From a bacterium (GTDB lineage Bacteria; Electryoneota; RPQS01), in contig JAHDVH010000001.1 of assembly GCA_023382385.1 (NCBI GenBank), forward strand, positions 900,850 to 964,849: a DNA stretch of 64,000 nucleotides, written 5' to 3'. The notes under the pieces were generated by a model, which was not told the origin of the DNA, did no database searches, and was given only the letters and a program-made list of their open reading frames with translations. Of this stretch, positions 9,602-53,020 are shown piece after piece. Within the stretch, counting starts at the first letter, position 1. Each line of letters starts with the position of its first letter. The translations under genes were made by a program, and so were the position numbers.

Positions 9602-9611
9602 GGCCGCGGCT

Positions 9612-10432: not shown

Positions 10433-10442
10433 TAGTGTTCTT

Positions 10443-10516: not shown

Positions 10517-10522
10517 AATTGT

Positions 10523-10556
10523 AAAACATGAGCTTAGGTTCATGTTTTTCGTTTTT
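10523..10556 (+). terminator. intrinsic terminator after the reconstituted tRNA (phage-supplied)
   Basis: aaaacatga/gcttaggt/tcatgtttt hairpin followed by tcgttttt. Confidence 0.7.
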
Positions 10557-10667
10557 GTGCATCGCCGCAAGTTCAATAATTTACTCTGATTTTGCTTTAT
10601 TTGTTCTACGGTAGAAAGAAAAGCATTCCGCACAGAGTGTCTCAAGATACGGCCTCTCCTTTAGAAT

Positions 10668-10699
10668 AACAAGCCCCGCCAATATGGACGGGGCTTGTT
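10668..10699 (-). terminator. terminator-like hairpin ending the late operon
   Basis: aacaagccccg/10-nt loop/cggggcttgtt, 20 nt downstream of the last minus-strand phage ORF. Modest U-tract (ttattct). Confidence 0.55.
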
Positions 10700-10718
10700 A
10701 TGGATGCCAACAATTTGG

Positions 10719-11018
10719 TTAGACTTTGGACCAGTTGATCCAACGGTCGGCTTCCTCAAATAGGTGAGGACAGCCTGCTGATTCCATGTCGGCTTTGGCA
10801 TCTGTTACCAGAGCCGCTATGGCCGCGTCGTCCAGCTTGGTGCTGGTCTTAAGGACGGCGGATGCCGCTTCCGTTCCGGCAGTGGCCAGCGCAAGCTGCG
10901 CGAGCTTCTTCTTCTCTTCTTGCTCGGCAGGAAGCGTTCCTTCCGCCATCTGCACAAGGTTCGGGATGTGCGGCAGAATGAACGGTTCAATCAGCGAGAG
11001 GGGAATCTTTACTCCCAT
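10719..11018 (-). CDS. hypothetical phage protein (last gene of late operon)
   Basis: 99-aa ORF tightly abutting the upstream gene (1-nt gap). No recognisable motif. Confidence 0.45.
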   Translation of the reverse strand: MGVKIPLSLIEPFILPHIPNLVQMAEGTLPAEQEEKKKLAQLALATAGTEAASAVLKTSTKLDDAAIAALVTDAKADMESAGCPHLFEEADRWINWSKV

Positions 11019-11019
11019 T

Positions 11020-12615: not shown

Positions 12616-12818
12616 TTCAGCACTCCTATTGCTAAATTAACGAGCGTAGTAACCACAAACGCGGCAACGCTTCCCCACACTGCCGCTTTCGTCTTGAGAG
12701 CAATAATATCTTCGCGCATGGCTTCCTGATTATCAGCGAGTCTCTTGATTTCGATGAGGACGTGGTTCTTCCACTCGCCCCAACCGTTCGTAGAGTAGTC
12801 GTTCGGAGGCATCATCAT
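12612..12818 (-). CDS. small tail-anchored membrane protein (holin-like candidate)
   Basis: 68 aa with a single C-terminal TM helix AAVWGSVAAFVVTTLVNLAIGVL. Start overlaps the tail-fibre stop by 4 nt. Confidence 0.45.
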   Translation of the reverse strand: MMMPPNDYSTNGWGEWKNHVLIEIKRLADNQEAMREDIIALKTKAAVWGSVAAFVVTTLVNLAIGVLK

Positions 12819-15800: not shown

Positions 15801-15823
15801 ATGTTCGCGGACAGAGCTTTCAT
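12815..15823 (-). CDS. tail fibre / host-specificity protein with an internal LamG (concanavalin-A-like lectin) domain
   Basis: ~1000 aa directly after tape measure and distal tail genes. LamG-type segment ...IECWVKFISFV...VWYHIVATAAGG...LDELRIWDRVISEGEAKQLY. Start set to ATG 15823 (MKALSANI...), which forms an ATGA overlap with the upstream stop. Confidence 0.7.
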   Translation of the reverse strand: MKALSANIAAGIAANSTPQFLIEVESATTLYRWATFPCNPANVSGWTGPDFEGKIAKNGFGKIRRAVDIREGGNVSQAQRWTFKIPNQSLISDTLATENFIGRRAEIRLIFTDQTGPSWMNALPVAPKSVIEDVTWDESHVTFYCSDSWIKQHRILPKRMLTPDEFPELPESNRNKVVPILYGNWLLNSGAGINKTGVASNLSPGASSIVYHDYFLGILNQPLKYGDVGTGANRPRSILCGHDVLQRSYPTPDGKLTRWVDEREIFCLTNIRHVQPAFGAVIDGVTADEVFKASNTLFRTTHLIPVVDVVGTSGATNPEYAVDTNDTNFTVLDANGEVVSYEIVATVGKTGTTAENVDWKFRIDAVNRVNDKVQYQISKNGTVHISWTDVPAYGSFVTVDIATKASPALDSGEGSYAGYQIEFRFVDVSGHDAGCEFRIKSVYVHVDELDDENVDVLMQTGKGRIFGEWIDSPKHSNSFNEGDLNENPAYVIESLLCDELGLKPRLHGAAIQTQDDSVTSPFFQVLHDSSLALDGIVSIECWVKFISFVAAGENFIVAKINGSGNIAPYALSVSTGGKVRFWRGDGSTSNYLESVATLSTGVWYHIVATAAGGSGATRYIHINGVVDNGSSIIQAVADGGSVLRIGLRAGSSTRTNMILDELRIWDRVISEGEAKQLYNAGSGYPKSFYQGNTKAWWRFDEEGRRETDGSTPSGAFTVTDSSGNGNGASSNNHTSMRWVTGASAKVPYSESEVQENDVTVAHPPAGFDVMAGKRSSWKFARQYLDKSNSLDMIRDLCRDAHLAYFVNYLGESTIARIDAGESGESPPVLSKFRLNGDKTSVSVKRGDLKYWYNEFVLKFKINMATGEPEESLFVSSPDAESFDSGFTNLSSEGSTYWGLCRDAHFATLQVNRWEYTATNIRDAATAEFLLKAIIKHLTRRPLIVQFKTGLGLIGYEPLELARLSHDLLPAAVNATSRFRLIEQELDPNSCEITSTFFEVGIP

Positions 15824-16233
15824 GACGGAGTACTCGTGCCCAGCGAGCGGTAGCGAACAGTGAACTTCTGCGAATAGATAGAGGGCGCGGCATACAGGCG
15901 ATGCGGCGGCAAGTTGCCAAACAATTGGCATGTCACCGCGACGCCATTCCCCGCCCCTAAATCTACGCCGGAATCGGGCGTCAACGTGAATTGATGCTTC
16001 GAGCCTTTCACGGTGTGAAGGAAGAAGTTTCTGAGTTCCGCGAGTTTCGACTGACTCATGCCGCGAATCTCAAACGTTGCAAGCCACACAACGACGTCGC
16101 GGTCATAAACTTCAATCGTGCCATCTTCATATTCCCCGACGCTCTGAAGGCGTTCGGGCTGAACGTCCAGCGGCTTGCGTGCGCCTGTTCGTCCGGTCAG
16201 GGTGACGGTGGTAGAAGAGTATTGCAGTGTCAT
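15820..16233 (-). CDS. distal tail protein-like (position-based)
   Basis: 137-aa ORF between tape measure and tail fibre, with 4-nt overlaps on both sides. Confidence 0.45.
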   Translation of the reverse strand: MTLQYSSTTVTLTGRTGARKPLDVQPERLQSVGEYEDGTIEVYDRDVVVWLATFEIRGMSQSKLAELRNFFLHTVKGSKHQFTLTPDSGVDLGAGNGVAVTCQLFGNLPPHRLYAAPSIYSQKFTVRYRSLGTSTPS

Positions 16234-18428
16234 GATGCGTAGCTCACGCTGAATCTGCGATCATCAAGCGCGCGTTCGATGGCGGCAGGGAGCATTTCCT
16301 CGACCAGATCGCGAATCTCAATGCGCTTCTGCAGCGGAATTCCCTGACCGTCAAGATTAATGGCGATCGACACGTTATTCCCGCCGCGCAATGACCGTCC
16401 GTTATTCATCGCTTCCAGAACAGGGAGATTGCGTTGCGCAGCCTGACGATTCACGACGAATTCACCGGACTCCAAGAGCGCCGGCACGCGGTCTCCGAAC
16501 CCGTGCCCGGGCACGACGCCGCCTTCCTGAAACTGCATGGCTCCCATTGCCCGAGCGATAATGGCCCCAATCCCCGCAATCGCGACGCCGATCGTTCCCA
16601 CAGCGAATGCCGGCGCAAGCGGCCCTGCCCACGCGTAGAAGGCTACGAGTTTAGCGTAGGCTTCAGCCATGAATGAACCCGTGCGCTTTGCCGAATTCGC
16701 CTGCTCAGTCGCGGTATACGAGGTGCTCGCCGCCATACCGATCGCCGCAGTCTTCGTCGTAATGGCCTGCTTCGTAATCTCATCCCAGATGTACTTGGTA
16801 GTGACTTGCGCGATCTTACTGGCAACGCTGGCCTTGAACTGGTTCCAAATCGCATCCCGCTTTTGCGCACCTGTCATTTCCGTGTTGAGCATTGCGTTCA
16901 CGGCATAAGCCTGCGTATTGCGCAGAAAATCCGTGTCTTCCAGAAACTGCTGCTTCGCATCTTGGCGCCGCTTACCGAGTTGCAGGTAGTACCATTCGTC
17001 GAGCTTAATCCGGTTATCAACGCCCTCCTCATGTGCCTCGGTCATAATCTGATCGAGTTCCGTGAGGTTCGCGCCAAACTCGCCGAACGGGTCTTCGCCG
17101 GTGTCTTCAGGCGGAATCCACTTCAATTGCACGGGCACGGGATCGGGGGGCGACTCGATCACAGGCGTGAGCGGCGTGGAGTTAAGTCGGGCAATCGATT
17201 TGGTGACCTTATCGACTTTCTCCTCAAATTCCGACACGCCCGGAATCAAATTATCCGTAGCCGCCTTTTCTAATTCTTCCGCTGTAACATGACCGAATTC
17301 CTTGACAACGCCGGTAGCATCTGAAGCGGCTACGGAAAACTGTTCGAACGCGTCCTCAACCTTCTCGACTTTCTGCGGCGTATCTTTGACTTCTGATTCA
17401 AAACCGGCGATTGCCGCCGTCAGAGCGATAACCGCTGTTGCCCCTCCAATCGCCCAGCCCCAACCGGGTATAGTCAGCATCAGCGATCGCGTAAAGACCA
17501 ACGCGGCGTTCATCGAGTGCAGACCTCGCGTGATCGAGGGCAAGAGCAAGCCGATTGCGCTCGCTGTAGCAAGAAATCCGGTCAGTCCTGCCGCACCCAA
17601 TCCGACAATTTGGACCAGCATCTGATGCTTCCCCGCCCATTCCCCAATGTCCTTCGCGAGTGGTCGAATCGACTGAGACAGCGCAGTAATCGTAGGGGCG
17701 AACGCCGCACCAAGTGCCTCAGACACGTCACCCACATCATTCTTCAAGCCCTGCAGAGATCCGCTCAATGTCTTTGCGTCCTCTTCGGCCAAACCCTTGA
17801 ACTTCTGGCCGAGGATGCTCAGCATGTATTCGGCGCGTTCAGATTCGGTAGCGTTCTCGCCGAGCACCTCTTTAAGATTGCGGAACTCGGGAATAACGCG
17901 GCCCAACATGCCGGCTTCACCCTGCAATACAAGAGACATTGCGCGAGCCGCGCTGGCCGTGTCCATCTTCATGCCCGCCGCCAAGTCCATCGTCGCGGTC
18001 AGATTATCGAATGCGACATCGGCATCGCCGACCAACAGCGTTAAGTCCGCAAACACTCCGAGCGTCTGCTCATCGCCGAACCGAGTAACCGCCTGCAGCT
18101 CCGCCGCGGCGCCCGCGACTTTCCCCTTGTATTCGTCCCACGACCTGCCCGAAATCTGAGTAGCCGCCCGAGCGCGATTCTCAGCGTCCTCCTGCTCCAT
18201 GAACGACTTCGTGACCAACCCGATGCTTCCCGCCACACCGGCGAACGCAATCGCAGACGCGTTCCGAATCTTCGCCAGATTCTCTTCCCAAGACTTGGAA
18301 GCGTTCCTCGCGGCATCGTCAGCGGCGGACTCCGCTCCCGCAAGCTGCTCTTTCAACTGAGAAAAGGCAGAGTCAACGTCTGCCTTCGCCTTCAGAAGTA
18401 TGGCAAGTTCTCTTTCGCGATCAGCCAT
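16230..18428 (-). CDS. tail tape measure protein
   Basis: 732 aa, helical and Ala/Gly-rich with hydrophobic central segments. TP901-type core-like stretch AELQAVTRFGDEQTLGVFADLTLLVG...AAGMKMDTASAARAMS. Follows the G/GT chaperone pair. Confidence 0.85.
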   Translation of the reverse strand: MADRERELAILLKAKADVDSAFSQLKEQLAGAESAADDAARNASKSWEENLAKIRNASAIAFAGVAGSIGLVTKSFMEQEDAENRARAATQISGRSWDEYKGKVAGAAAELQAVTRFGDEQTLGVFADLTLLVGDADVAFDNLTATMDLAAGMKMDTASAARAMSLVLQGEAGMLGRVIPEFRNLKEVLGENATESERAEYMLSILGQKFKGLAEEDAKTLSGSLQGLKNDVGDVSEALGAAFAPTITALSQSIRPLAKDIGEWAGKHQMLVQIVGLGAAGLTGFLATASAIGLLLPSITRGLHSMNAALVFTRSLMLTIPGWGWAIGGATAVIALTAAIAGFESEVKDTPQKVEKVEDAFEQFSVAASDATGVVKEFGHVTAEELEKAATDNLIPGVSEFEEKVDKVTKSIARLNSTPLTPVIESPPDPVPVQLKWIPPEDTGEDPFGEFGANLTELDQIMTEAHEEGVDNRIKLDEWYYLQLGKRRQDAKQQFLEDTDFLRNTQAYAVNAMLNTEMTGAQKRDAIWNQFKASVASKIAQVTTKYIWDEITKQAITTKTAAIGMAASTSYTATEQANSAKRTGSFMAEAYAKLVAFYAWAGPLAPAFAVGTIGVAIAGIGAIIARAMGAMQFQEGGVVPGHGFGDRVPALLESGEFVVNRQAAQRNLPVLEAMNNGRSLRGGNNVSIAINLDGQGIPLQKRIEIRDLVEEMLPAAIERALDDRRFSVSYAS

Positions 18429-27402: not shown

Positions 27403-27813
27403 CTACGTTCCTTTCCGGTCGCCTTTGGCGAGTCTGGCAATAGTCGTCTTGGCTAATTTGAGCGCGGTGTCAGATACGGTTCCATCCGGCCACACCCAAC
27501 CGAATGTCTGAGCTTCGCGAACATGTTGTTCAACATACGTCATCGGGATTCGCGCGGCGGCCGATACTTCTTCGTAATCAACTTCGACGCCATACCAAAT
27601 TTGTTCCATTTCCGTCAAATCATCCGGCGCCTCCAAGTCATCTGATGGAACACCGACTTTCAGCAGCGGCCACGAGATCACGAGACGCATCAGCGGCAGT
27701 GCGCCAACGAGCGTCGCTACATGGTCGCTTTCGCGCGGCGTGCCTTTGAGCATACCCTGCTCTTTCTTCATACGTGAAAGGAGCTTTGCCCTGTCCTCGG
27801 GTTTGAGTTTCAT
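27403..27813 (-). CDS. hypothetical protein
   Basis: 136 aa, with a 4-nt overlap with the upstream methyltransferase gene. Confidence 0.4.
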   Translation of the reverse strand: MKLKPEDRAKLLSRMKKEQGMLKGTPRESDHVATLVGALPLMRLVISWPLLKVGVPSDDLEAPDDLTEMEQIWYGVEVDYEEVSAAARIPMTYVEQHVREAQTFGWVWPDGTVSDTALKLAKTTIARLAKGDRKGT

Positions 27814-29222
27814 AATCCAATCTTCTGGAACAAGACCACGACCTCACCTTCGTCTTCCGGTGTCTCGGTCCAGTTGTTAATCATACCAGAAGCGCGCGTC
27901 TCAACATACTCCAACCCACAGCTTTTCGCGTGGTCTTTGGCTCTCTTTTCAAGCGGATGCGTCTGATTGCCCACTTGCAGAGCGAACACGGCGTTGGGTT
28001 TCAGCGCCTTAGCTGTTCTGTGAATGAGTTCATGGTAGAAACCGTTATCCCAAGCATCGAACTTCTTGAACTTGCGAAAGCTGGAGTTTTCGCCTTCGTA
28101 CTTCTCTACGTTGAAGTAGGGCGGCGAAGTGAGTGCGAAGTCAAAGGACTCAGCTTCAAGTTGGCTGTCTTCAAAGCATTGACAGAAGAACTTTGCCTCT
28201 TTGCCCGGTGTGTACCGCGAATAGTTCTCGAAGAGCGCCTTCGTGCCCGCGTGTGTGGACTCAGCCGGATCAAATCCTGTGTAGGAAGAAGCTCTACTCA
28301 ACAGAAATCCCACGAGCCGCCCGCCCCACCCGTGACATGGATCGAGCACTGCACCGCCTACAGGACAGAATTCATTGATAAGGTCAAGCGCGAGTTCAGC
28401 CGGAAAGTCCGGCGCGGTTCGGCTGCCCCCGATGGGCAGACTTTGTGCGAGAATCATGTCAATGGACGGTTTGTCCTTGAGACAAAATCGGAACGAATCG
28501 CCGTACTTTAAGTCTTCCGTGAAGGATTTGAGCGCATCAATCATGCTGTGCGCATGACCCGCGACGTGAATCTGTCTCGGATGGAAGGCATGCGAAGTCC
28601 AGCGAGGATAGCGCTCACCGAGATAAAGTGCTCTCAGAAAATAGATACGCGCAATGGCCCTGGTGCAATTGTGCGACACGACGCCGTGCGGCGAAAGCAA
28701 CTCGATGAACTTCAGCGTGTCGCGAGCCCACTCTTGCCACGCCTGATTCAAGTTGAGAGTCTGCTCTTCCGAAAGTTCGCGCTCGATGGTGACGGCTTCC
28801 ATGTCATCCAGCAGATCTGAAATCTCGTCGTCATCGAATCCCGTAAGTGATAGGTCGGCGTTGTGTTCCTGAAGGCTTTGTATCAGTTCGCGGAGCGCGT
28901 CTTCGTCCCAATCGCCGCTGATTCGATTGAGCGAGAGGTTTAGTTGGCTCTCCTGCAATTCGTCAAGGTCTACGACAATCACGTCGGTCTCTGCCGTGCC
29001 AGCGGCGAGCAATACCTTCACACGCTGGTGACCGCCCACGATCTGACCAGAGCGCTCATTCCAGATAATCGGCTCCACGAGACCGAACGTCTCGACAGAC
29101 CTGCGCAGCTTGTCCAATTCCGCTGCTTTCATCATGCGCGGGTTCCAGTCGGCAGGCTTCAATCTTGACAGCGGCATCCGCTTCACGGGAAAGCCGTTCA
29201 CTATCCTCGCTCCCCGAGTCAT
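27810..29222 (-). CDS. ParB-like nuclease domain fused to a SAM-dependent DNA methyltransferase (SPPY motif)
   Basis: N-terminus LSRLKPADWNPR...IVGGHQR (ParB/Srx fold). C-terminal half has VLDPCHGWGGR (motif I-like) then LTSPPYFNVEKY (motif IV). Confidence 0.75.
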   Translation of the reverse strand: MTRGARIVNGFPVKRMPLSRLKPADWNPRMMKAAELDKLRRSVETFGLVEPIIWNERSGQIVGGHQRVKVLLAAGTAETDVIVVDLDELQESQLNLSLNRISGDWDEDALRELIQSLQEHNADLSLTGFDDDEISDLLDDMEAVTIERELSEEQTLNLNQAWQEWARDTLKFIELLSPHGVVSHNCTRAIARIYFLRALYLGERYPRWTSHAFHPRQIHVAGHAHSMIDALKSFTEDLKYGDSFRFCLKDKPSIDMILAQSLPIGGSRTAPDFPAELALDLINEFCPVGGAVLDPCHGWGGRLVGFLLSRASSYTGFDPAESTHAGTKALFENYSRYTPGKEAKFFCQCFEDSQLEAESFDFALTSPPYFNVEKYEGENSSFRKFKKFDAWDNGFYHELIHRTAKALKPNAVFALQVGNQTHPLEKRAKDHAKSCGLEYVETRASGMINNWTETPEDEGEVVVLFQKIGL

Positions 29223-42261: not shown

Positions 42262-42615
42262 ATGGATAAGGTTAGCGAACTACGGAAGGCGCTGACCCAA
42301 AGAGGAGCCAAGGCGCGGATTGTCCGGGAGGTTGGGATTTCCCCCCAAGCACTCGGCAAGATTCAGCGTGGGGTTGCTGTTCCCACAACTGCCACCCGCC
42401 GCTTGATTGCCCAAGGCTTGGGGCTGCCGCAGGACTACTTCCTCGAGCCGGACGCTGAGTCTGAACGCACCACCCGCCGCCGAATCGTAGTTGAGCTTGA
42501 AATCCCTGACGACTTCCGATTGGATGATGGTCGCCTTGACAAGATTCAGCGTGCGATGGTGGATGCTGGTACTCATATCGTTTCCGTAATTAAGGACTTA
42601 GATAAAACCGACTGA
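42262..42615 (+). CDS. CI-like XRE-family HTH repressor
   Basis: RIVREVGISPQALGKIQRGVAVPTTATRRLIAQGLGL helix-turn-helix. Divergent from the early operon. No SD. TATAAA (42248-42253) sits 8 nt before the ATG. Confidence 0.7.
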   Translation: MDKVSELRKALTQRGAKARIVREVGISPQALGKIQRGVAVPTTATRRLIAQGLGLPQDYFLEPDAESERTTRRRIVVELEIPDDFRLDDGRLDKIQRAMVDAGTHIVSVIKDLDKTD

Positions 42616-42821: not shown

Positions 42822-43247
42822 ATGCTTCGACTGCTGTTCGCACTAATCATGTCCGCAGGTTTATCGCATGCGCAAGAGATCACGATCCAATCTCATGGTG
42901 GCGCGCACTCGTGGAACGTGTACCAAGGTCAGGAGAAGATCAGCGAAGCAAAGCTCTTTTCCTTGGCCGGTCAACCCGAGATTGCAGAACATGCATCGCA
43001 TCACAGCAATAACCGCGTACGGAAGTTGGTCAATGGACCAGTGTTTATTGCATGCGGCGCCCTTCTCGCGATTAGGCCAGGCCAAGAAAGCGGCAACTTC
43101 TCCACTCCGTTTGTCGTAGCGGGAGGTGGTGTCGCGGGAGTTGGCGTTTTCTATTTTATTAAGAGATTCTTCACTCCCAAGTGCTACGCAACACACGAAA
43201 GCGCAATGCAGGCTGCCCAACGATATAACGCCGAACTCAACCGATGA
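42822..43247 (+). CDS. exported/membrane protein (moron cassette gene 1)
   Basis: Signal peptide MLRLLFALIMSAGLSHAQE plus two hydrophobic segments. Strong SD. Confidence 0.55.
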   Translation: MLRLLFALIMSAGLSHAQEITIQSHGGAHSWNVYQGQEKISEAKLFSLAGQPEIAEHASHHSNNRVRKLVNGPVFIACGALLAIRPGQESGNFSTPFVVAGGGVAGVGVFYFIKRFFTPKCYATHESAMQAAQRYNAELNR

Positions 43248-43444
43248 AACTCGTGATCAACAAGAACGACTTCATACGTCGGATCGCCAAAGACTTGGTG
43301 AAGTTGAAAGGATTGTCACCGCAGGAAGCGAGCGAGAAAACAGGCGTTCCGGTTGCGGAAATCCTGCGCGAGTACGAGGAGCCGTCACCGAAGTACACGA
43401 CGGTAGCACCAGACGGGAAAGTGACCGAACACGGAAGGGAATAG
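43244..43444 (+). CDS. small hypothetical protein (moron cassette gene 2)
   Basis: 66 aa, ATGA overlap with gene 1. Confidence 0.4.
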   Translation: MKLVINKNDFIRRIAKDLVKLKGLSPQEASEKTGVPVAEILREYEEPSPKYTTVAPDGKVTEHGRE

Positions 43445-43446
43445 CC

Positions 43447-43917
43447 TTGGCGAAGTACTTAGTCAAGCAAGTCAAGAGTACCACCGCCAGCTTGTTTGCA
43501 ACTTTGGGCTACATCAGGAATCAAGCAAGAGAAGGATTATGTGCTGATCATGTTCTGATCGCCTGCGATTCAAAGGCGCTCGTGAACATGGAACTGCGGA
43601 ACGTCTTCACAGAAGCACAGGTCGACGCGCTGAAGCACGATGGGCCGCTTCTGATCGGCGGATTACACATAAGACTAATGGTACTGCAGGACCAAGTTGA
43701 GCATCATGACGGCGTAGTAATCGCTGTGATTCCGTCAGCAAAGATGTTGGAAAAGATTGACGCGATACAAGGGATTACCGATACCTACGTACTCGAAGGT
43801 TTCGCAGACGAACAGAAGCACTGGCTACAAAAGTGGACACCCGACGAAATTCGCTTCATTCCGCGCGAAGGCACCATTGACGTAGAGATTACGCCTGCGC
43901 CGAAGCGAAGCACCTAA
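43447..43917 (+). CDS. hypothetical alpha/beta protein (moron cassette gene 3)
   Basis: In-frame TTG at 43447 directly after the gene 2 stop. The track start 43126 would overlap genes 1 and 2. An alternative start is the ATG for MELRNV. Confidence 0.4.
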   Translation: MAKYLVKQVKSTTASLFATLGYIRNQAREGLCADHVLIACDSKALVNMELRNVFTEAQVDALKHDGPLLIGGLHIRLMVLQDQVEHHDGVVIAVIPSAKMLEKIDAIQGITDTYVLEGFADEQKHWLQKWTPDEIRFIPREGTIDVEITPAPKRST

Positions 43918-44017
43918 TATGCCCCTATCCGAATCCGATTCTCGCGCATTCGTTTCACTATGACGCTTTCTGACCGTCGTATGTAGCCGGTCACACCAAC
44001 CGAGAAAGGTTGAAAAC

Positions 44018-45661
44018 ATGAATGCGAAGACCACGCGAATCTCACCCGCCATTCAGGCAACTCTGAAGCGGGTGGGGTTCGCGGTTTTGGTGTTGGGGGA
44101 AGTTGTCCACGCCCAGCCTTATGAGCCAATCGTTTTGTACGAAGCATTCGGCGAACCGGGTGAGCAACTTGGCGCTTCCGTGTTACGTCACGTAGGAGAC
44201 CAAGATGGGGATGGGTATGATGATATCTTAGTCAGTGTAGCGGACAGTACTCATTCAAGTGGAACCATCCGTTACAACCATCTTCGTTTGATTTACGGCA
44301 ATGACTTTCCGCCGTACAGAACACTGGATTTTGCCCACACGCTGACGGATACGACGACGGAGTGGACATACTGGGCAGGCGCTTCGGGTTACGGACCGCC
44401 TTTGGAGATCGTTGATCTCTCTGGTGACGGATGTCCCGATATACTCATTGAATTGCATTTCAGAGAATCTATTCTTTATCAGAGGTATCTTTTTTTGGGT
44501 GGCCCGGGCGTTTTTGACACGCTCTGGGACTGGCGGTCGGACAACGCGGAACCCCGCAAAGTACTGGAAACTCTGCCGCATTTTAACGACAATGGCATAG
44601 GCTGTTACTTGCGGGGGGGGGTAGCAGCAGAGCAACGCCTGTTGGAGTTCTATCAGGGGCAGTGGCCTGACCCGCCGTCTTCATCGACCTGGACGCACAG
44701 CGTTGCTTGGAATTGGAATTTCTTTTATCCAAACGGAGTCGGTGACATTACGGGGGATGGTTATACGGACTTCCTGTACTCTCTCCGCTGGGGGGATGGG
44801 ACCTACCATGTTCACGGCTGGTTCGGCGGTCCTGACGCGGATTCTATTCCGGACGTCACCTTCATTGAAGATACGATGGCGGTTCTGAGCACGGCGTGGT
44901 CTATCATCGGAGACATGAACGGGGATAGCGTGGATGACCTTGCTGCGCATACCATTGATCATCATGGCGTACAGCTCCGCGTCTGGTACGGCGGACAGCC
45001 GCAGGATTTCAATACGTGGGACGCGACACTCAACGGAGGAGGTGGTCTCGTTCCCTACGCTCATGCCTGTTTAGGGGATATCAACGGGGATGGATATGAA
45101 GACATGGCGTTTACGGATGCCCCAGTTCACAGAGTGTGCGTCTATCTCGGTGCGGATCACGTCGACTCAGACATCGCGTATCAAGTCAACTTTCCCAACG
45201 AAGACGGGAATGTTCTTGGTGATTACTCCCGATCCGGTGATATTAATGGGGACGGTTTGGATGATTGGATGTACTCGTCGTTCTATGGTGATACGCTCCA
45301 GCGCGGCTACATTAGGATAATCTCCGGCGATCCGCGCTTTGGCCTGCCCGTGGGCGACGAACCGCCCCCGGTCGTGCGGGAGTTCGTGGTAGGAGATCCC
45401 TATCCGAATCCTTTCAACTCGAGTGTGACGATCCCGATAGAAGTCATCGGCAGCCCGGCGGCTGAGGCGAAGGTTGCGATCTTCGATCTGCTGGGGCGGC
45501 AGGTGTTTGCATTTCAAGACCGGAAACTTACACTCGGGCATCACGACCTCGTCTGGCACGGCGAAACCACAACCGGCGCTTCTGTCGCAACGGGGGTGTA
45601 CTTTGTTGCGGTTCAGACCACTAATTTGTCCGTTGTAAAGAAACTAGTGTATCTCAGATAG
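44018..45661 (+). CDS. FG-GAP/VCBS-repeat beta-propeller protein with T9SS C-terminal sorting domain
   Basis: Signal peptide. Six or more repeats of type GDxxGDGxxD (DQDGDGYDDILV, DLSGDGCPDILI, GDITGDGYTDFLY, GDMNGDSVDDLAA, GDINGDGYEDMAF, GDINGDGLDDWMY). C-terminus PYPNPFNSSVTIPIEV...GVYFVAVQT...KKLVYLR matches the T9SS type A CTD pattern. Confidence 0.85.
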   Translation: MNAKTTRISPAIQATLKRVGFAVLVLGEVVHAQPYEPIVLYEAFGEPGEQLGASVLRHVGDQDGDGYDDILVSVADSTHSSGTIRYNHLRLIYGNDFPPYRTLDFAHTLTDTTTEWTYWAGASGYGPPLEIVDLSGDGCPDILIELHFRESILYQRYLFLGGPGVFDTLWDWRSDNAEPRKVLETLPHFNDNGIGCYLRGGVAAEQRLLEFYQGQWPDPPSSSTWTHSVAWNWNFFYPNGVGDITGDGYTDFLYSLRWGDGTYHVHGWFGGPDADSIPDVTFIEDTMAVLSTAWSIIGDMNGDSVDDLAAHTIDHHGVQLRVWYGGQPQDFNTWDATLNGGGGLVPYAHACLGDINGDGYEDMAFTDAPVHRVCVYLGADHVDSDIAYQVNFPNEDGNVLGDYSRSGDINGDGLDDWMYSSFYGDTLQRGYIRIISGDPRFGLPVGDEPPPVVREFVVGDPYPNPFNSSVTIPIEVIGSPAAEAKVAIFDLLGRQVFAFQDRKLTLGHHDLVWHGETTTGASVATGVYFVAVQTTNLSVVKKLVYLR

Positions 45662-45670
45662 AGGTGTCAA

Positions 45671-48600
45671 ATGAAGAAGAGTTATTGTCTGGCCTATGCT
45701 GCAATCATCACGGCAGGAGCGCTACTTCTGACTCCAAGCGCATTAGCCAAGTCGAATACTGATTTTCCGAAAGGCATTATTGGATCACCGTGGTCCGCAA
45801 TGAGACAGCACTATACAGAGAATTGGAATAATTATCCCAATGAGTCCGCTTGGTATGAGGCTAGATATAACGCTGTTTTCTCAAATGGGACAGGACTCCA
45901 GAATGCCATCAGTCACATGGATTCGCTCAATGTGAACTGGTTCTACGGTGACTTCGTCTCAAGCGATTTTATCGCAAATCTTGGACGATCGGACTACTTT
46001 TTCACACTCGCCGAAGACATCCCTATTGAAGAGTCCAAGTACCTTGGCGCCGAGCGAATGCTAATGGATATCGGCTGGGAACGACCAGGTGTGAGGCAGT
46101 CGGACAACGAGCAACTTGCGTTGCGTACGCTTTGGGCACCTGGCGATACTTTTGATGTTGGCGGCACAAGCCGCGTACTAACTGTTGGGTCGCGGGTTCA
46201 ATTGGATCCACCGCTTCCGGATGGTACGAGCAACGTGATCAAGGCTACAGAGGGAACGCACAACCCCGGCTGGATACTCTGGCCAGGAGACGCAGAAAAG
46301 TACGACTATCCGGAAGACTACTCGCGAGTAGCGCAGCAGGGGACGTCCAAGACACATTGCAGATCCACTGGAACAAATCACGATTGGTTTTTCGGCGATC
46401 CCGACGAGTCCTTCACGAGCTACTTTTTTGATTTGCTCTGTCAAGTGCCTTCTTGGGTGGACACATCAAGCTGCGACACACTCGCAGAACTCTTCATCTT
46501 CATGTACTCCTACACTGGTGGCACGACCATGCCACTGGATAATAATGACACAAATCCCGATAGCCTCAGGACGCGACTCCAGACCGTAGAACTGAATTGG
46601 GTAGACTTCTGCTCGATACCGATCCGACTCTGCGATTTTGACAATCCAGGAGAATTTGAGACTGTTCATAAGCTTGACAGTCTCAAATACTGGTGGCCGA
46701 ACGGGAGTCATATGGCGATAGGGCTTTACTGGTACGGAATCGAAGATTTTTCAGTAGCCTCTCTGGATATTCGAGAAGAGTACTACGACGAACTTTTTGA
46801 ATTGAACGGAGCGCCTAAACAAAAGTTCAATGAGGTTGTTACTACCCTATCGGGTATTCCTCAGCAAATGCCCGGCGCAGGGTTTCAGCAAGACGAGCCT
46901 TCTTGGAACCAGTGGTTCACGCTTGGAATGTTCAATCGCCACCTACCGAACGGGATTACCATCAACGATGATGCGGTCACGGACTCAACCGCAATCTGGA
47001 CCGTAGATTCGACATATCAGCGATTAACCTCGAACGATCAAGAGTACATGACCGGAGGCTGGGCTCGTCAAACACCGCATACCGGGACCTACGTTAAGAC
47101 GAGAGGCTATGACCATTGGTACGACGATGATCCTAATGCGAGAGACGGCTTTGGATTCGGTGCTCGTCCGCCGGATGCAACGACATCGGAACTGTCAGGA
47201 TTATCCAATAGCTACGCAGTTGTGGCAAACATTGATACATGTGTATTGAGCCTCCAGGCTTACTGGGATTTACTGATTGACAACACCGCTTTCTTAGATT
47301 GGGCTATCGCGGACGGTCAAATGCCTTCGTTCTGGCGGCGGCGCGCAGACGCAGCCGGATCGCTGCTTCTACATGCGGAAAGCGCAAGAAATTCTGGAGC
47401 GGATTGGGCCGGTTATATAGCGCACAATAAGTGTTGGGAAAACGATTCCTTGAAAATGTATTGGTATACTGGTGGTCACCACGATAGTCTGACGATTGCG
47501 AACAGATACCATACTGTTCCTGAAATGTGGTGCCAAACGGGACTAAACTTGGCTTATGGTGCAAAGGGTATTGTCTGGGCGGAACACAATGCATTTGTTT
47601 TCGAAGATCGGCCGCTCGCTTGGGAGGCAACATCCGTGCACACAAAAGAACCATGGTTCACCGGTCTGTCAAAATTGTACGCATCGCTGGACACGGTTGG
47701 ACCCACTCTAAGAGCGTGTCGATGGGACAATTCATTCTGCACGCGGAGCTTTGAGGACAATTTTGATTATCCGTATGCAGGCCCAGGTGGCATTGCCATT
47801 GACACGGTTTATACAAAGTACTGGAACGACACGCCGTCGTTGGACTGGGTGAGTGAGGCTGCGAACCATACCTATGTCCAGGTCAGTACATTCGAAGCTC
47901 CTAACAGCGTGGACGACGAGCTGTATCTATTCTTGGTCAATCGGAGGTGCGAAGAACACGAGCGCCGTCAAATCTATTTCACCCTTGACATGCCGCAAGC
48001 ATCGTCGGAATACCGTTGCGAGCTTGCTCGCGGAGATTCAAGCTGGATCGTGATGACAGATGAAGAGGGCAAGGCCAGTTTCATGGTGCAGCTCCCGCCG
48101 GGTGAGTATGAACTCTTCCACGTATCTCCCAACGAAGATTTGATCATTTCCGATACAACATATACGATTTATGCGCCTTATCTGCTTAACAGAAACATTC
48201 GCATTCGCAACGGCGGGGAGCTAACGATCCTGCCGGATACATCTCTGAGCGCAGGTGATACGGCACAAGTTACCTGCTGGCCGGGAAAGGGAGTCTATTT
48301 GGACGAAGGGATAGGAAACAAGTTTAATGTTCTTGGCACTGACTCAAATGCCATTAAGTTTCGCGCATTAAATGGATTGCATGACGTGGACAATTGGTGG
48401 ATTGGGATCAGAGCGGCGGACACTACGGCATTAGACACGGTCACGCTACAGAGCACGCTAATAGAACACGCACGATTTGGAATTGTTTGTCGAGCGGAAG
48501 ACTCGAGAGTCAACTTGATGCGCTCCGCAGTTAGACATTGCCTAATAGGTCTTGTTCTTGACGATTACGCAACAAGTGATATTCGATACAGTACGTTTTG

Positions 48601-51600
48601 CTTTAACAGTGCGGCAATTCAATGCGAGAGAGGAGCCTCAATAGATGTCGTTAAAACGTCTATTCTGAATTGTGGGTCGGGTGTTAAACTACTCAACAAC
48701 TGTACTGCCTCACTTAAAGAAGTTAGAGTCGAAAAAAGCCATAACGGTGATGCACGTATCGGAACGCACGGCATATTCGGCTATAACTCTACCATAATGA
48801 TGAAGTGTTGCACGATAGACAGTAATTCGTGTGATGGGTTGGAAATGGTTGGTGGCACTCTAATCATTGCGGATTTCGACACAAGTGGTGCGCGTTTTGG
48901 GGCAAATTGGTTCTTTGAAAACAACCTGTCCGAACTGCGAGTTGACGGGCCGGCAGTCGTTTGGGCTGACAGCGGCTACAATGTGTTTTTCGAGGATTCA
49001 ACCTCTGATCCACTATGGGTGCGATTTTCCAACATCTCGATGCCGGCGTACTGGCGCGCGAACTACTGGAATGGCTTGACTGCTGACACCACAATTTGGC
49101 TCCACATTGGGTCATTGATTGAAGATAGTTTAGGTGTACCATTACTTCCGGAATGTGAACCTGCATTTCCATCAGAGCCTGACTACTGCTACCTGCCTCT
49201 TCGGGAACCAACATTGACAGATTGCATTATAGAAGCCCTTAAGCAAGAGTTTGTACCTGATCTGTCGGCGGCTTCTGTATTGTATGAAGACGCACTTGAA
49301 TCGTCTTCGACGAATTGCAAGAAAACGCCGACTGTTAGTCGCTTGTTACCGGTAAATCATTTCGGGGGAGTCGATGTTTCAACGACTCTAAGCTACCTGT
49401 TTTCGATTGCGGACACTGCTTCCAATGATGAGCTATTGCATGCGGCAACGATCGGAATGGCATTTTTGCTCGCCGAGACTGACGATAACATAGATAGTGC
49501 GCTGACGCTATACCAACAAGTTGTAGAAAGCGCTGGCGAGGACATTTACCAGAGGATTGACGGTCAAATTGGTTTGCTGATGACAAGCATACAGAAGGCC
49601 GCACAAGACACTTGCGATGGTATGACTGATGATGAGTACTTGGAATATCTCGACTCTTTAAACAGAGTTTTTGGTCAGCGTTTCGTCTGGACGCAGTACG
49701 AAATCACGGACAGCGTGGTGATGTATGCTCCGATGCGTGTGGACAGTGTGATCAACGTGCGTGGTGACGGCGTTTTGACGATCTTACCGCATCCTGGGTA
49801 CAAGAATCCCGTCGTTGAGTTTGTTGAGCAAGGGGCGATTAAGGTTTGGGGAACGGATTCGACCAAAGAGAAGGGTAAGCTGTATGTTTATGGAGACGCA
49901 GAGAATCGAGTGAAACTGCATTGGGTGGACTCAACCGGCACCAGGAATATCAAGTCTGAAAGAGGCCTTGTCAAAATGAGGCATGCGAACTTCTATGGCA
50001 ACGGCATGGCCAACCAAACCTCTGACGTTGCAGGAAGTGTCCAGGGAAGGAGACGGGCTACCCTGCAATTGGACTCATGTAACTTTTCATGGTTTGAAGA
50101 CGGTGTTTTGGCCTGGGCAACCGACAGCACAAGTTACATGCGGGCATGCACGTTAACACACGTAGGTGGAAGCCAATTTTATTCAGGGTTTGGTGCCGCC
50201 CTTACGCTTCTCAAATCCGACAGCTTCAAAGTTGAAGATTGCGTTTTCAGCGAGAGCAACGGGGTAAGCATTTATCAGGCGCTTGCCTACGGTGTTAAAA
50301 TTAAGAACTCAATTATTAGTAACGGGGCAACATACGGTATATGGGGAGCGTCCTCAGGAGGCGGTGACGCACGTATAGAGTGCTGCACGCTGGTGAGCAA
50401 TGGCGATACACTCGCAGAGCTGTATACCCTGGGCGTTATCTACGATCTTGTAGGTGGTCATAACAGTTTTGCCGATAGCTCGGGCCCATTGATTAAGTCA
50501 GCGGATCCCTCGTATGTTGATCTTGAGAACGGCGAGAACTACTTTGATGTGTGGGATGACGGCCGCTACTTGCAATCCGGCGATACGAACAACACCTGGG
50601 ATATCACGTGGAATACCTGGAGTCCCGCGATGCCGAATGACAGCAACTTCTACGACTATTTGTGGCCGGCGGCGCCCGCCAATTGGACAGTAGATTCTTC
50701 GCTAACCGATTTCTTAACGTGCGGAGAGTCTGCTACATCGTCGATAGGTGGTGGGAGTTGGCTCGTGTTGGATGACAACTCAGAATCCGGAACTATGTCG
50801 ACTGGTGGTGACGAGCCGTCAAAAGTCAGCTCATTGAATCAGAAAGAAGCTGCACAAACAACCAAGGGTGGCGTTGCAAGCAAGGCAAGGGAATATACGC
50901 CGAATCATGGCACAAGGAATTCTGCTAACGCTTATGCTACGCGCAAGCAAGCCAAGTTAGAGAAACTCGCACACCATAATCGTGAGTTGTTGGCTTGGCG
51001 AGACATGCGGTCAACAAGCAAGAGTAACGACAAGGCTCGAGCAGCCATGCAATTTCTAACTGATCATCAGGGCTCTGAGTTCACACCGGCTGCACTGGGC
51101 ATTATTGCTGGTGCCGCAAGCGACGGATCTGCGGTTCTGGCCAGTAAGTATTTGCGCGGTTTTGCAGAAGAAACTAAAAAGCATTCACTAAGAACCCTCG
51201 CACAACGACTCTCATATCAGGCTTTGGCCAATGAGGGCAAACCTGCTGAAGCGTTGTCCGGGCTTGAGGACATGATGACGGATGCCAAGACACCGTATGA
51301 CTCGGTGTTGGCAGTACTGGCCGCGATGCAAATCTACTTTGACTACCATCATACAGGAAGATTGCAGGCCAGACACCCCCAAGTTGTAGTGACAGATCCT
51401 TATGACTTGGTTCGTAAGACATTGCTGCTTACCGAACGGCTTGACGATCCAGTGCTTGGCGTATCTGATAATCAACCTGCACTCCCGACCAAGTATGCTT
51501 TGTATCAAAACTACCCAAATCCCTTCAATCCGACGACGGAGATCCGTTTTGACTTACCTGAGGCTATCCGCGTCGAACTGAAGGTCTTCAACATCCTCGG

Positions 51601-51766
51601 TCAGGAGGTTGCGACTCTCGTGGACGAAGTCCGCAATGCCGGTGCTTACCGCGTGCTGTGGGACGGCAAGAACTTGGGTGGTCAGGTTACGGCTTCTGGC
51701 GTCTACGTCTATCAGCTCAAGACGCCGACCTTCACAGATGCGAAGAAGATGGTGCTGATTAGGTAA
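45671..51766 (+). CDS. giant (2031 aa) secreted protein with two right-handed beta-helix modules and a T9SS C-terminal sorting domain
   Basis: Signal peptide MKKSYCLAYAAIITAGALLLTPSALAKS. Beta-helix turn repeats around aa 830-1100 and 1350-1600. C-terminus YQNYPNPFNPTTEIRFDL...SGVYVYQLKT...KKMVLIR matches the T9SS CTD pattern. Confidence 0.85.
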   Translation: MKKSYCLAYAAIITAGALLLTPSALAKSNTDFPKGIIGSPWSAMRQHYTENWNNYPNESAWYEARYNAVFSNGTGLQNAISHMDSLNVNWFYGDFVSSDFIANLGRSDYFFTLAEDIPIEESKYLGAERMLMDIGWERPGVRQSDNEQLALRTLWAPGDTFDVGGTSRVLTVGSRVQLDPPLPDGTSNVIKATEGTHNPGWILWPGDAEKYDYPEDYSRVAQQGTSKTHCRSTGTNHDWFFGDPDESFTSYFFDLLCQVPSWVDTSSCDTLAELFIFMYSYTGGTTMPLDNNDTNPDSLRTRLQTVELNWVDFCSIPIRLCDFDNPGEFETVHKLDSLKYWWPNGSHMAIGLYWYGIEDFSVASLDIREEYYDELFELNGAPKQKFNEVVTTLSGIPQQMPGAGFQQDEPSWNQWFTLGMFNRHLPNGITINDDAVTDSTAIWTVDSTYQRLTSNDQEYMTGGWARQTPHTGTYVKTRGYDHWYDDDPNARDGFGFGARPPDATTSELSGLSNSYAVVANIDTCVLSLQAYWDLLIDNTAFLDWAIADGQMPSFWRRRADAAGSLLLHAESARNSGADWAGYIAHNKCWENDSLKMYWYTGGHHDSLTIANRYHTVPEMWCQTGLNLAYGAKGIVWAEHNAFVFEDRPLAWEATSVHTKEPWFTGLSKLYASLDTVGPTLRACRWDNSFCTRSFEDNFDYPYAGPGGIAIDTVYTKYWNDTPSLDWVSEAANHTYVQVSTFEAPNSVDDELYLFLVNRRCEEHERRQIYFTLDMPQASSEYRCELARGDSSWIVMTDEEGKASFMVQLPPGEYELFHVSPNEDLIISDTTYTIYAPYLLNRNIRIRNGGELTILPDTSLSAGDTAQVTCWPGKGVYLDEGIGNKFNVLGTDSNAIKFRALNGLHDVDNWWIGIRAADTTALDTVTLQSTLIEHARFGIVCRAEDSRVNLMRSAVRHCLIGLVLDDYATSDIRYSTFCFNSAAIQCERGASIDVVKTSILNCGSGVKLLNNCTASLKEVRVEKSHNGDARIGTHGIFGYNSTIMMKCCTIDSNSCDGLEMVGGTLIIADFDTSGARFGANWFFENNLSELRVDGPAVVWADSGYNVFFEDSTSDPLWVRFSNISMPAYWRANYWNGLTADTTIWLHIGSLIEDSLGVPLLPECEPAFPSEPDYCYLPLREPTLTDCIIEALKQEFVPDLSAASVLYEDALESSSTNCKKTPTVSRLLPVNHFGGVDVSTTLSYLFSIADTASNDELLHAATIGMAFLLAETDDNIDSALTLYQQVVESAGEDIYQRIDGQIGLLMTSIQKAAQDTCDGMTDDEYLEYLDSLNRVFGQRFVWTQYEITDSVVMYAPMRVDSVINVRGDGVLTILPHPGYKNPVVEFVEQGAIKVWGTDSTKEKGKLYVYGDAENRVKLHWVDSTGTRNIKSERGLVKMRHANFYGNGMANQTSDVAGSVQGRRRATLQLDSCNFSWFEDGVLAWATDSTSYMRACTLTHVGGSQFYSGFGAALTLLKSDSFKVEDCVFSESNGVSIYQALAYGVKIKNSIISNGATYGIWGASSGGGDARIECCTLVSNGDTLAELYTLGVIYDLVGGHNSFADSSGPLIKSADPSYVDLENGENYFDVWDDGRYLQSGDTNNTWDITWNTWSPAMPNDSNFYDYLWPAAPANWTVDSSLTDFLTCGESATSSIGGGSWLVLDDNSESGTMSTGGDEPSKVSSLNQKEAAQTTKGGVASKAREYTPNHGTRNSANAYATRKQAKLEKLAHHNRELLAWRDMRSTSKSNDKARAAMQFLTDHQGSEFTPAALGIIAGAASDGSAVLASKYLRGFAEETKKHSLRTLAQRLSYQALANEGKPAEALSGLEDMMTDAKTPYDSVLAVLAAMQIYFDYHHTGRLQARHPQVVVTDPYDLVRKTLLLTERLDDPVLGVSDNQPALPTKYALYQNYPNPFNPTTEIRFDLPEAIRVELKVFNILGQEVATLVDEVRNAGAYRVLWDGKNLGGQVTASGVYVYQLKTPTFTDAKKMVLIR

Positions 51767-51790
51767 TATGAATACCGTTGCATTTTAAGC

Positions 51791-52924
51791 ATGTCCTCCC
51801 TCTATAAGCGCAAACTAAAGAATCGCACAGTCTGGTACGTAAATCTGAAGCTTGCCAACGGCAAGCGCAAGAGCATTAACACCGGCTGTGAAACGAAGAC
51901 GGCGGCCAAAGTTGTAGCCGCCGAGTTTGAACGCAAGATATTGCTGGGTCTTGATCCGACGAAGCCAACGCCGCCAAAGCAGAATGTGATCGCGCTATTC
52001 GAGCGGTTCATGGAAGAGTCAAAACGCGACTGGTCTCCAGACACGATAGACCAGTACGAAGATACGCTTGAAACCCTGAGGACCGTCGTTGGTGAAATCC
52101 CGCTTACGGAACTCTCAAGACGTCACCGCAACGCGATTGTGGATTATCTGACAGAGCGCGGTGCCGTTCACAAGAGTAGAACAGGAAATGTGAAGCGCGT
52201 CCGCGAAATCTCCGGCCACACAATAAACCGGAACATCCGCAACGTCACGCGCTTTCTGAACTGGTGTATTGAAGAAGAAGTTGTTCGCGGTTGGCAACCG
52301 CCGAGGTTCAAGCAAATAGCGGTGGTAGAGGAACCGAAGGAGAGTTTCACACCGGACGAGATTAGCCGGATATTGGACGCCGCGGCGGACTTCACGCTGA
52401 ACGGCTACCCGATTCAGGCCTACTTTGCGTTTCAGGCGTTCAGCGGGTTTCGGCGCAACGAAGGCCGCCACCTGCAATGGGAAGACATTGACTTCGAACG
52501 ACAGACGATACTGGTACCAGCAGGCAAGGTCACGAAGCGGATTGGCCGCCGCGAAGTCGTACCACTCACCGCACCGCTTGAACTAATCCTGCAATCGCTG
52601 CCCAGACGCGCCACAGGCCCCGTCTTCCCCGGTGTTAGCGAGAAGATTACCCACGTCTTCAAAAAGGTCTGCGAGGCCGCTGGCGTGGACTACAAGCCGC
52701 TGCACAGGCTACGGGCGACGTTCACAACTCAGCTATCCGATCTGCGCCTTCCGCCGATGGCCGTACAGAAAATCGTCCGCCACAAGAATCTGAACACAAC
52801 CTACGGGCACTACTATCTTCCGGAAGCAAACGCCCTGCGCGAAGCCGCGAATGAAGCCCTGAAAGACTCGCCATTTGCTACGGCAATTCTACGAATATTT
52901 GATAAAGATGCGGTTGACAAGTAG
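51791..52924 (+). CDS. int: tyrosine recombinase / phage integrase
   Basis: Catalytic residues in order: GFRRNEGRHLQWEDIDF (R), HRLRATFTT (HxxR), VRHKNLNTTYGHYY (H...Y). Sits 12 nt upstream of attR. Confidence 0.9.
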   Translation: MSSLYKRKLKNRTVWYVNLKLANGKRKSINTGCETKTAAKVVAAEFERKILLGLDPTKPTPPKQNVIALFERFMEESKRDWSPDTIDQYEDTLETLRTVVGEIPLTELSRRHRNAIVDYLTERGAVHKSRTGNVKRVREISGHTINRNIRNVTRFLNWCIEEEVVRGWQPPRFKQIAVVEEPKESFTPDEISRILDAAADFTLNGYPIQAYFAFQAFSGFRRNEGRHLQWEDIDFERQTILVPAGKVTKRIGRREVVPLTAPLELILQSLPRRATGPVFPGVSEKITHVFKKVCEAAGVDYKPLHRLRATFTTQLSDLRLPPMAVQKIVRHKNLNTTYGHYYLPEANALREAANEALKDSPFATAILRIFDKDAVDK

Positions 52925-52935: not shown

Positions 52936-52977
52936 CTCTCACGCCGGTAACACGGGTTCGAATCCCGTACGCGCTAC
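52936..52977. repeat. attR: 42-bp direct repeat (displaced original 3' part of tRNA-Glu)
   Basis: Identical to 10475-10516. Not preceded by a tRNA 5' half. Confidence 0.9.
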
Positions 52978-52985: not shown

Positions 52986-53020
52986 AACGGGTTAGCCAAT
53001 GCGGCTAACCCGTTCTTTTG
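52986..53020. terminator. intrinsic terminator (original tRNA terminator, also serves the convergent host gene)
   Basis: aacgggttagcc/aatgc/ggctaacccgtt followed by cttttg. Confidence 0.7.

Follow-up and report, generated by a model that had tools for sequence, protein, structure and literature searches.

Morons that bring about lysogenic conversion, and the accessory or defence hotspots of temperate phages, are familiar from lambda (lom and bor), P22 (gtrABC) and P2/P4. Phage tailspikes and depolymerases are virion parts whose genes belong to the structural module and take the lytic strand; they have neither a signal peptide nor a type IX secretion system (T9SS) tail. That system is, to our knowledge, restricted to the Fibrobacteres-Chlorobi-Bacteroidetes (FCB) superphylum; its type-A cargo in Bacteroidota includes the gingipains RgpB and Kgp as well as ChiA. 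Phage-encoded T9SS cargo has been reported once before, as a "unique occurrence", in a "Cryophage" with three variable genes bearing T9SS type-A sorting domains; hijacking of the host T9SS was proposed, with extra enzymatic capability, competition and superinfection exclusion as possible roles (Bellas et al. 2020, Nat Commun 11:4403, PMC7468147), and our other literature searches disclosed nothing closer. Here we describe a prophage-borne cassette of predicted T9SS cargo genes, encoding an FG-GAP propeller protein and a 2031-aa beta-helix protein (the giant), in a stretch of 64,000 nucleotides (the window) from a bacterium of the lineage Electryoneota, RPQS01 (GenBank assembly GCA_023382385.1, contig JAHDVH010000001.1, positions 900,850 to 964,849 of the forward strand). 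Coordinates are those of the window unless a comparison locus is named.

Phage T9SS cargo is already known as a principle, and loci of this kind are common in viral metagenome data; an earlier note on this DNA, which was aware of no described temperate phage with such cargo, is contradicted both by the Cryophage report and by at least 73 loci in IMG/VR, some of them in temperate Mu-like phages. Newly described here are a delimited temperate example, a slot found in three states, and a recurrent propeller-giant cassette with swappable heads. The Cryophage is alike in having phage genes with type-A sorting domains that vary between phage variants, but it was assembled from a cryoconite metagenome and its cargo comprises an endoglucanase, a GH39 protein and a PA14 protein, whereas the window contains a temperate prophage defined by its attachment (att) sites, in which a propeller protein is paired with a 2031-aa beta-helix protein of no recognisable catalytic family in an integrase-adjacent slot, and for which comparators exist with that slot empty or holding the Druantia defence system. 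Like the morons and hotspots of temperate phages, the cassette is optional, keeps to one set place by the immunity and integrase genes, lies in the lysogenic orientation and is swapped for Druantia in a sister prophage; it differs from them in that its predicted products are very large secretion-system substrates and in that its 8.3 kb enlarge a phage genome of some 36.5 kb by about 20%. These products share with the type-A cargo of Bacteroidota the combination of a Sec signal peptide with a beta-sandwich of about 80-90 aa at the C-terminus that forms the sorting domain (TIGR04183/PF18962), a likeness that extends in the giants of Mu-like phages even to Peptidase_C25 with a propeptide, but the window genes are phage-encoded, their host lies outside Bacteroidota, the giant has no identified catalytic domain, and secretion of the proteins is a prediction. 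Tailspikes and depolymerases also present a right-handed beta-helix encoded by a phage genome; the window genes differ in their place in the lysogeny block, on the opposite strand, and in their signal peptides and sorting domains, and on these grounds the giant does not fit the class of tailspikes and depolymerases.

An optional cassette in a three-state slot

The prophage occupies 42,503 bp from att to att (10475-52977). It is integrated in a tRNA-Glu(CTC) gene recognised by ARAGORN (10443-10516, + strand), whose final 42 nt constitute attL (10475-10516); attR (52936-52977, + strand) is an exact copy of attL and a partial 3' end of the tRNA. Shuffled sequences gave an expectation of 0 copies for this exact 42-nt direct repeat, and the same 42 nt recur in the attP of one comparison locus (L150) and in the att remnants of two others (L144 and L154). 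With att repeats in a tRNA, an integrase, and genes for TerL, portal, capsid and tape measure, the element is a temperate, siphovirus-type phage integrated in tRNA-Glu. Its lytic and structural genes lie on the - strand (11020-42092; PHROG matches to tape measure, a protease-capsid fusion, portal and TerL), which also encodes a YqaJ-type exonuclease and other phage genes. The + strand carries, in order, a repressor-like helix-turn-helix (HTH) gene, a gene for a 141-aa protein, an open reading frame (ORF) of 66 aa, ORF156, the FG-GAP gene, the giant gene and the integrase, so that repressor, cargo and integrase all run opposite to the lytic genes; for the two cargo genes the earlier note had stated this. 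Its estimate that the cargo of about 7.7 kb makes up nearly a fifth of the prophage also holds, the two genes spanning 7749 bp, or 18.2% of 42,503 bp. Only 9 nt separate the FG-GAP gene from the giant gene, and 24 nt separate the latter from the tyrosine integrase (51791-52924, + strand; 377 aa, Phage_integrase 68.8 bits), which is the sole integrase of the element and is 90% identical to that of L150. A terminator scan placed the sole strong terminator downstream of the cargo genes and integrase just beyond attR, as a GC-rich, bidirectional hairpin (52986-53014).

Comparison with L150, a 36,479-bp contig from Logan SRR29748400 (comparison region 1-14725) with a phage in attP form that lacks the cargo, defines the accessory insertion. 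There the 66-aa ORF directly abuts the integrase, behind which come the exact 42-nt att, the stretch found next to attL in the window, and the tail genes. This arrangement confirms the att core and the phage ends, and delimits the insertion as 43445-51790 (8.3 kb, + strand; ORF156, the FG-GAP gene and the giant gene). On its left side the insertion borders on the conserved 66-aa gene of the lysogeny module (43244-43444, + strand), 65% identical to its counterpart in L150. ORF156 (43447-43917, + strand; 156 aa), which by its gene call starts with TTG, opens the insertion and has no Pfam match; PADLOC returned no match for ORF156, the 141-aa ORF, the FG-GAP protein or the giant. The sister prophage (IMGVR_UViG_2713896713_000001; locus L021, 1-8645) is colinear with that of the window from the tail genes to the repressor, at 31-87% amino acid identity, and downstream of the repressor its slot contains DruA (550 aa), a 972-aa protein, DruD (356 aa) and DruE, the last running off the end of the locus. 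These genes represent a Druantia type I defence system, with strong PADLOC matches for DruA, DruD and DruE. The slot is therefore seen in three states, filled with the cargo cassette in the window, filled with Druantia type I in the sister, and empty in L150, and the cassette is an optional accessory block, or moron, in a variable slot flanked by the lysogeny genes and the integrase. GC content at third codon positions (GC3) is lower in the insertion (0.53-0.59) than in the genes of the host (0.61-0.68) or of the phage core (0.62-0.76). The window sequence was located in assembly GCA_048500335.1, on a contig of 2.9 Mb, and the DNA of the cargo region is 99.98-100% identical in three other sequencing runs.

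The 5' boundary of the FG-GAP gene shows how such a cassette may have been assembled. A junction of 267 bp (43831-44097, + strand) runs from the final 84 nt of ORF156 through the intergenic region into the FG-GAP gene, of which it covers the first 80 nt, encoding the signal peptide; it has 92.5% DNA identity to three comparison loci (L023, L024 and L025; L023 9814-10080). In these only the last 28 codons of ORF156 remain, and the FG-GAP gene behind the junction is only 39% identical in protein to that of the window; a conserved 5' flank joined to a divergent gene body points to cassette exchange by recombination at this place. Among family members in L144, L145 and L147, too, the DNA of the signal-peptide codons is conserved, at 79-100%. 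In L023 (GCA_013328935.1), the region 12216-16320 contains a chromosomal FG-GAP homolog with a C-terminal sorting domain (CTD) next to genes for a TonB-dependent-receptor-like product of 921 aa and a Beta_helix_4 protein of 438 aa, a neighbourhood that hints at a link between the propeller family and polymer uptake loci.

Other variable features accompany this slot. The repressor-like HTH gene (42262-42615, + strand; 117 aa) is the first of the + strand lysogeny block, with a weak RstR-family match; its product is 49% identical to an HTH_3 protein at the equivalent place in the sister prophage and 64% identical to that of L150. The 141-aa protein encoded behind it (42822-43247, + strand) has, by its translation, a signal peptide and a hydrophobic C-terminal segment, and its site is a second, small variable slot, where L150 has two unrelated signal-peptide ORFs (87 and 183 aa). 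The att site in tRNA-Glu is itself a hotspot used by several different, unrelated elements. L144 (16160-16215) and L154 (58-99) have in common the right end of another, non-phage element at the identical 42-nt att, and the host flank in L154 is 91% identical to that of the window; in L151-L153 a DUF499-containing element is found at the att site, with only the last ~16 nt of att kept (L151 ~7180-7200). Elsewhere in the prophage, a 470-aa protein (27810-29222) resembles a ParB-like nuclease at its N-terminus and a DNA methyltransferase at its C-terminus (PHROG 498/620) and is 73% identical in the sister, and a 1038-aa tail-region protein (12815-15931; 980 aa in its L150 counterpart) with a concanavalin-like Laminin_G_3 domain is likely the receptor-binding protein of the phage.

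The propeller protein and the giant

Both cargo proteins have an N-terminus whose n-region is basic, with a hydrophobic core and a site of the A-x-A type, and which is judged Sec-like by inspection and a hydropathy heuristic; the predicted cleavage sites fall after MKKSYCLAYAAIITAGALLLTPSALA, before K, and after ...KRVGFAVLVLGEVVHA, before Q. At the other end, each sorting domain lies at the extreme C-terminus, stopping 3 residues before the stop codon, and the tails close with K-x-x-L-x-R/K, a pattern common to annotated T9SS cargo at 45-51% identity. Both tails exceed the TIGR04183 cutoff of 23 bits (35 bits in the FG-GAP protein, aa 462-544, and 29.5 bits in the giant, aa 1948-2028). The proteins are predicted to be type-A T9SS cargo, and the assignment of Sec signal peptides and T9SS sorting domains made in the earlier note stands, heuristically so for the N-termini. 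CTD ORFs are numerous in loci of genomes related to the host. A scan of genome contigs with the host OPT gene recovered relatives at up to 85% identity, none of them with synteny at tRNA-Glu; the named ones are KSB1, Eisenbacteria and LCP-89. For the cargo, the closest relatives that bear a name are Calditrichaeota, and a literature search for T9SS in Calditrichaeota or Caldithrix found nothing. Use of the 95-aa tail as a query for further cargo on the host contig gave short fragments from other samples only.

The FG-GAP protein (44018-45661, + strand; 547 aa) consists of a signal peptide, a seven-bladed propeller and a type-A sorting domain (aa 453-547, 45374-45658). The propeller announced by the earlier note is well supported: Pfam matches reach 47.6 bits for FG-GAP (cutoff 22.1) and 36.4 bits for FG-GAP_3, the family consensus contains seven GDxNGDGxxD motifs, in keeping with the DxDxDG-type Ca-binding loops of seven-bladed FG-GAP and integrin-alpha propellers, and an AlphaFold2 (AF2) model built on a 70-sequence alignment (predicted local distance difference test, pLDDT, 87.3) has a signal helix (aa 10-30), seven blades and a C-terminal beta-sandwich. 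The best Foldseek matches of the propeller model in the PDB are integrin alpha headpieces (E 4e-14). The protein is therefore taken as a Ca-binding module for interactions, and no enzyme is evident in it. The tail also matches PF18962 (Por_Secre_tail) at 33.3 bits (cutoff 27). PorZ (PDB 5m11; Foldseek rank 24, E 3e-7) is alike in placing a propeller before a C-terminal sorting domain, but it has two propellers, is a part of the T9SS machinery, and has a TM-score to the window protein of only 0.14. This score, and an NCBIfam PorZ match confined to the tail and far under threshold (17.5 bits, cutoff 260), rule out an identification of the FG-GAP protein as PorZ. Proteins of about 540 aa with the same FG-GAP plus CTD composition form a family in metagenome-assembled genomes (MAGs) labelled Calditrichaeota, Ignavibacteria and Zixibacteria, where NCBI names them T9SS type A sorting domain proteins. 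The closest homolog (79% over aa 16-387) is a chromosomal gene, split by IS3, in a Calditrichaeota-labelled MAG, and the next are about 39% identical, in non-phage contexts.

The giant (45671-51766, + strand), a beta-helix protein of 2031 aa as first described, has a signal peptide (aa 1-26), a head of unrecognised fold (27-830), a first beta-helix (~830-1130), a helical region, a second beta-helix (~1437-1660), a linker, a further helical region (~1760-1935) and the sorting domain (1938-2031). Beta_helix (PF13229) scores 48.7 bits over aa 1457-1580 (cutoff 25.9), and the first module has a weak NosD match; a recent duplication as the source of the two modules was rejected on a BLASTP E of only 0.08. 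Outside the prophage, a host ORF running off the start of the window (3-2024) encodes a NosD-type beta-helix with an Fn3-like end and without a sorting domain. The suggestion that the beta-helix modules confer polysaccharide lyase or hydrolase activity is not supported, the giant having no match to any catalytic family in Pfam, NCBIfam or the sequences of the PDB. Its head (aa 27-830; 45749-48160, + strand) belongs to no known family: an exhaustive search of 1.84 billion representatives gave 7 remote matches, none with a Pfam domain over the shared region, Pfam itself gave none, sequence and profile searches of the PDB with the giant were empty, and AF2 with a 6-sequence alignment reached a pLDDT of 40.

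A word-indexed protein search with the giant returned tail matches only. The resulting idea of an orphan protein is refuted by a 1522-aa homolog, 45% identical over 1425 aa, which was found in L144 (Calditrichaeota-labelled MAG GCA_020637445.1) through the context of its FG-GAP neighbour; since a word-indexed search can miss a homolog of this length (~1400 aa) and identity, its "no homolog" outcome does not denote an orphan. A scan of metagenome contigs with the giant alignment, using poorly chosen patterns, gave one match, in the tail only. IMG/VR scans with the giant, the FG-GAP protein and the integrase found nothing close, and a scan of genome contigs with a 383-aa phage protein had no match. 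The giant and its L144 homolog are 25-40% identical across aa 676-1275 and 54-74% across aa 1276-2031 (49496-51763, + strand), the region of the second beta-helix, helical domain and sorting domain; the protein thus has a conserved C-terminal stalk and a variable head.

Recurrence of the gene pair

In L144 a propeller gene followed by a giant gene recurs beside an identical att remnant. This locus encodes, in order, an FG-GAP-CTD protein (550 aa), a 461-aa ORF, the giant homolog, a second FG-GAP-CTD protein (574 aa), an FG-GAP protein (532 aa), an N-terminal giant fragment and IS3, the fragment being a 320-aa ORF cut by IS3 that matches aa 7-288 of the window giant. About 740 bp past IS3 lies a 56-nt stretch 100% identical to the attR of the window, with a partial 3' end of the tRNA and no full tRNA.

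Viral metagenome data extend this recurrence widely. The sorting-domain tail was surveyed in IMG/VR with a tail alignment and one motif, [NP]YPNPFN, so that all figures are minima: at least 77 loci were recovered, at least 73 of which hold at least 98 CTD ORFs, with two or more in at least 23 loci. Most full-length ORFs have signal-peptide-like N-termini, and at least 22 tail-bearing ORFs exceed 1150 aa, many measuring 1200-1800 aa. At least 26 of the loci (L075, L078-L080, L083, L084, L089, L093-L097, L099, L100, L103-L111 and others) form one Mu-like lineage, with MuA- and MuB-like genes, portal, minor head protein and TerL, whose structural genes are unrelated to those of the window prophage. 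Here, on the opposite strand, the portal side and TerL flank a highly variable island of cargo genes with signal peptides and CTDs, and its giants are 25-60% identical while TerL is 84-97% identical. Among the matches listed, a member of the propeller family (E 1e-55 to 1e-69) precedes the giant in 9 of these 26 loci; it stands directly beside the giant in most of the nine, and a second copy intervenes in two. The Mu-like giants begin with Peptidase_S8, or with Peptidase_C25 and a propeptide, and continue with Beta_helix and the tail; a profile made from them aligns colinearly to the window giant at aa 1463-1659 (i-E 8e-7) and 1855-2030 (6e-39). On another contig (L072), which has a repressor, an integrase and a tape measure gene, two CTD ORFs lie between the integrase and the tail genes. 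A tblastn search of 50,697 GenBank phage records with the tail, a single short query of low sensitivity, gave no match. Judged by sequence, the 45%-identical homolog of the giant, the recurrence of the arrangement and the agreement of the cassette DNA with other sequencing runs mark a real, selected gene pair, and the giants are modular, with a conserved stalk and a variable head.

Proposed role and alternative explanations

Taken as a whole, these features are probably best explained by an optional cassette that is expressed in the lysogen and exported through the host T9SS, thereby converting the surface of the lysogen. Its presence as an optional block is observed; we infer its expression in the lysogen, the T9SS export and surface location of its products, and their biological role. 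The cassette would be transcribed in the lysogen together with the + strand lysogeny genes, a reading compatible with the gaps of 9 and 24 nt and with the lack of a strong terminator before attR. Both proteins would cross the inner membrane via Sec, and their type-A sorting domains would then be recognised by the T9SS of the host, leading to transport across the outer membrane and to surface anchoring or release, with lysogenic conversion of the cell surface as the outcome. The integrin-like, putatively Ca-binding propeller may serve as a binding module, and the giant may present an exchangeable N-terminal head on a long stalk made of beta-helix and helical parts. The most likely role would be the binding or degradation of extracellular polymers or surface structures, to the benefit of the lysogen or the exclusion of competitors or phages. 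Exclusion or competition would fit the presence of Druantia in the slot of the sister prophage and the variability of the heads, and polymer degradation would fit the protease heads found in other phages.

Several observations weigh against this explanation. The host ORFs scanned within the 64-kb window yielded no gene for T9SS machinery (PorK/L/M/N, SprA/Sov, PorV or PorU), in agreement with the earlier note, which had placed that machinery outside it. Promoter-like sites are not enriched over shuffles. The head, being without a recognisable family, makes an enzymatic role of the giant conjectural. Finally, the tail of the giant scores only 19 bits with PF18962, below the gathering score of 27, and also fits FlgD_ig, a generic Ig-like fold. 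This last point bears on an alternative that we regard as improbable, in which the tails are generic Ig-like modules of the FlgD_ig type and the proteins are periplasmic or are released by lysis, for instance as depolymerases during infection. Both tails do match FlgD_ig in Pfam (26.6 and 29.1 bits), and phage beta-helix proteins are often depolymerases; against it, both tails are above the TIGR04183 cutoff, stand at the extreme C-terminus and have the K-x-x-L-x-R/K ending, both proteins have predicted signal peptides, and the genes lie in the lysogeny block opposite to the structural genes.

Two further alternatives concern the ancestry of the cassette. It could be a passive passenger without benefit, that is, host DNA from a chromosomal FG-GAP and giant cluster near tRNA-Glu that was picked up by illegitimate recombination or imprecise excision. 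The chromosomal and IS3-disrupted state of the closest FG-GAP homolog (79%, aa 16-387), the occurrence of family members in non-phage contexts, the 92.5% identity of the 5' flank to L023, a GC3 unlike that of the phage core, and the use of the tRNA-Glu site by several different elements would all agree with such a history. We nevertheless think it unlikely, because 7.7 kb of reading frame is intact and identical across four datasets, and because unrelated Mu-like phages show propeller and giant in the same order again, with portal and TerL genes on either side; moreover, the ostensibly chromosomal cluster of L144 itself abuts an att remnant, and the truncated piece of the phage ORF156 in L023 suggests transfer from phage to chromosome. 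It is far less probable still that cargo and integrase make up an independent integrative island, placed in tandem with the phage at tRNA-Glu. Several unrelated elements do use this att, and the composition of the cassette is unlike that of the phage core, but a hidden third att copy, which the earlier note had named as the sign of such an island, was not found at up to 3 mismatches with either the 42-mer or a 15-nt core, and the element has a single integrase. In L150, furthermore, the integrase belongs to a phage without cargo, where it follows the 66-aa gene and precedes attP and the tail genes; this comparison and the three-state slot leave a separate, merely adjacent island unsupported.

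A more specific version of surface conversion by exported cargo would make the cassette an anti-phage or competition module at the cell surface, which masks or destroys receptors or attacks neighbours, and whose heads reflect an arms race. Druantia in the equivalent slot of the sister prophage, heads that are highly variable while phage cores are conserved, and a similar role proposed for the Cryophage cargo (PMC7468147) speak for it; no PADLOC match was obtained, however, and no toxin or immunity gene was recognised. Integrase-adjacent slots also carry non-defence morons, which counts against it, and we hold this version to be possible but doubtful. Only tentatively, then, would we propose a phage-borne, T9SS-exported module of envelope defence or competition that occupies a Druantia hotspot and whose heads are swapped on the stalk under arms-race selection; if true, it would constitute a new class of secreted lysogenic-conversion defence recurring across unrelated temperate phages of FCB-superphylum hosts.

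Whichever role applies, the window provides a cleanly delimited temperate example, with natural comparators in which the slot is empty or filled with Druantia, of a propeller-plus-giant cassette with exchangeable heads that recurs in unrelated phages, where gingipain-like and subtilisin-like proteases are among the heads. If these proteins are exported in lysogens, temperate phages would alter the set of proteins that environmental polymer-degrading bacteria secrete and carry on their surface, and phage resistance, inter-strain competition and the turnover of organic matter would be affected.

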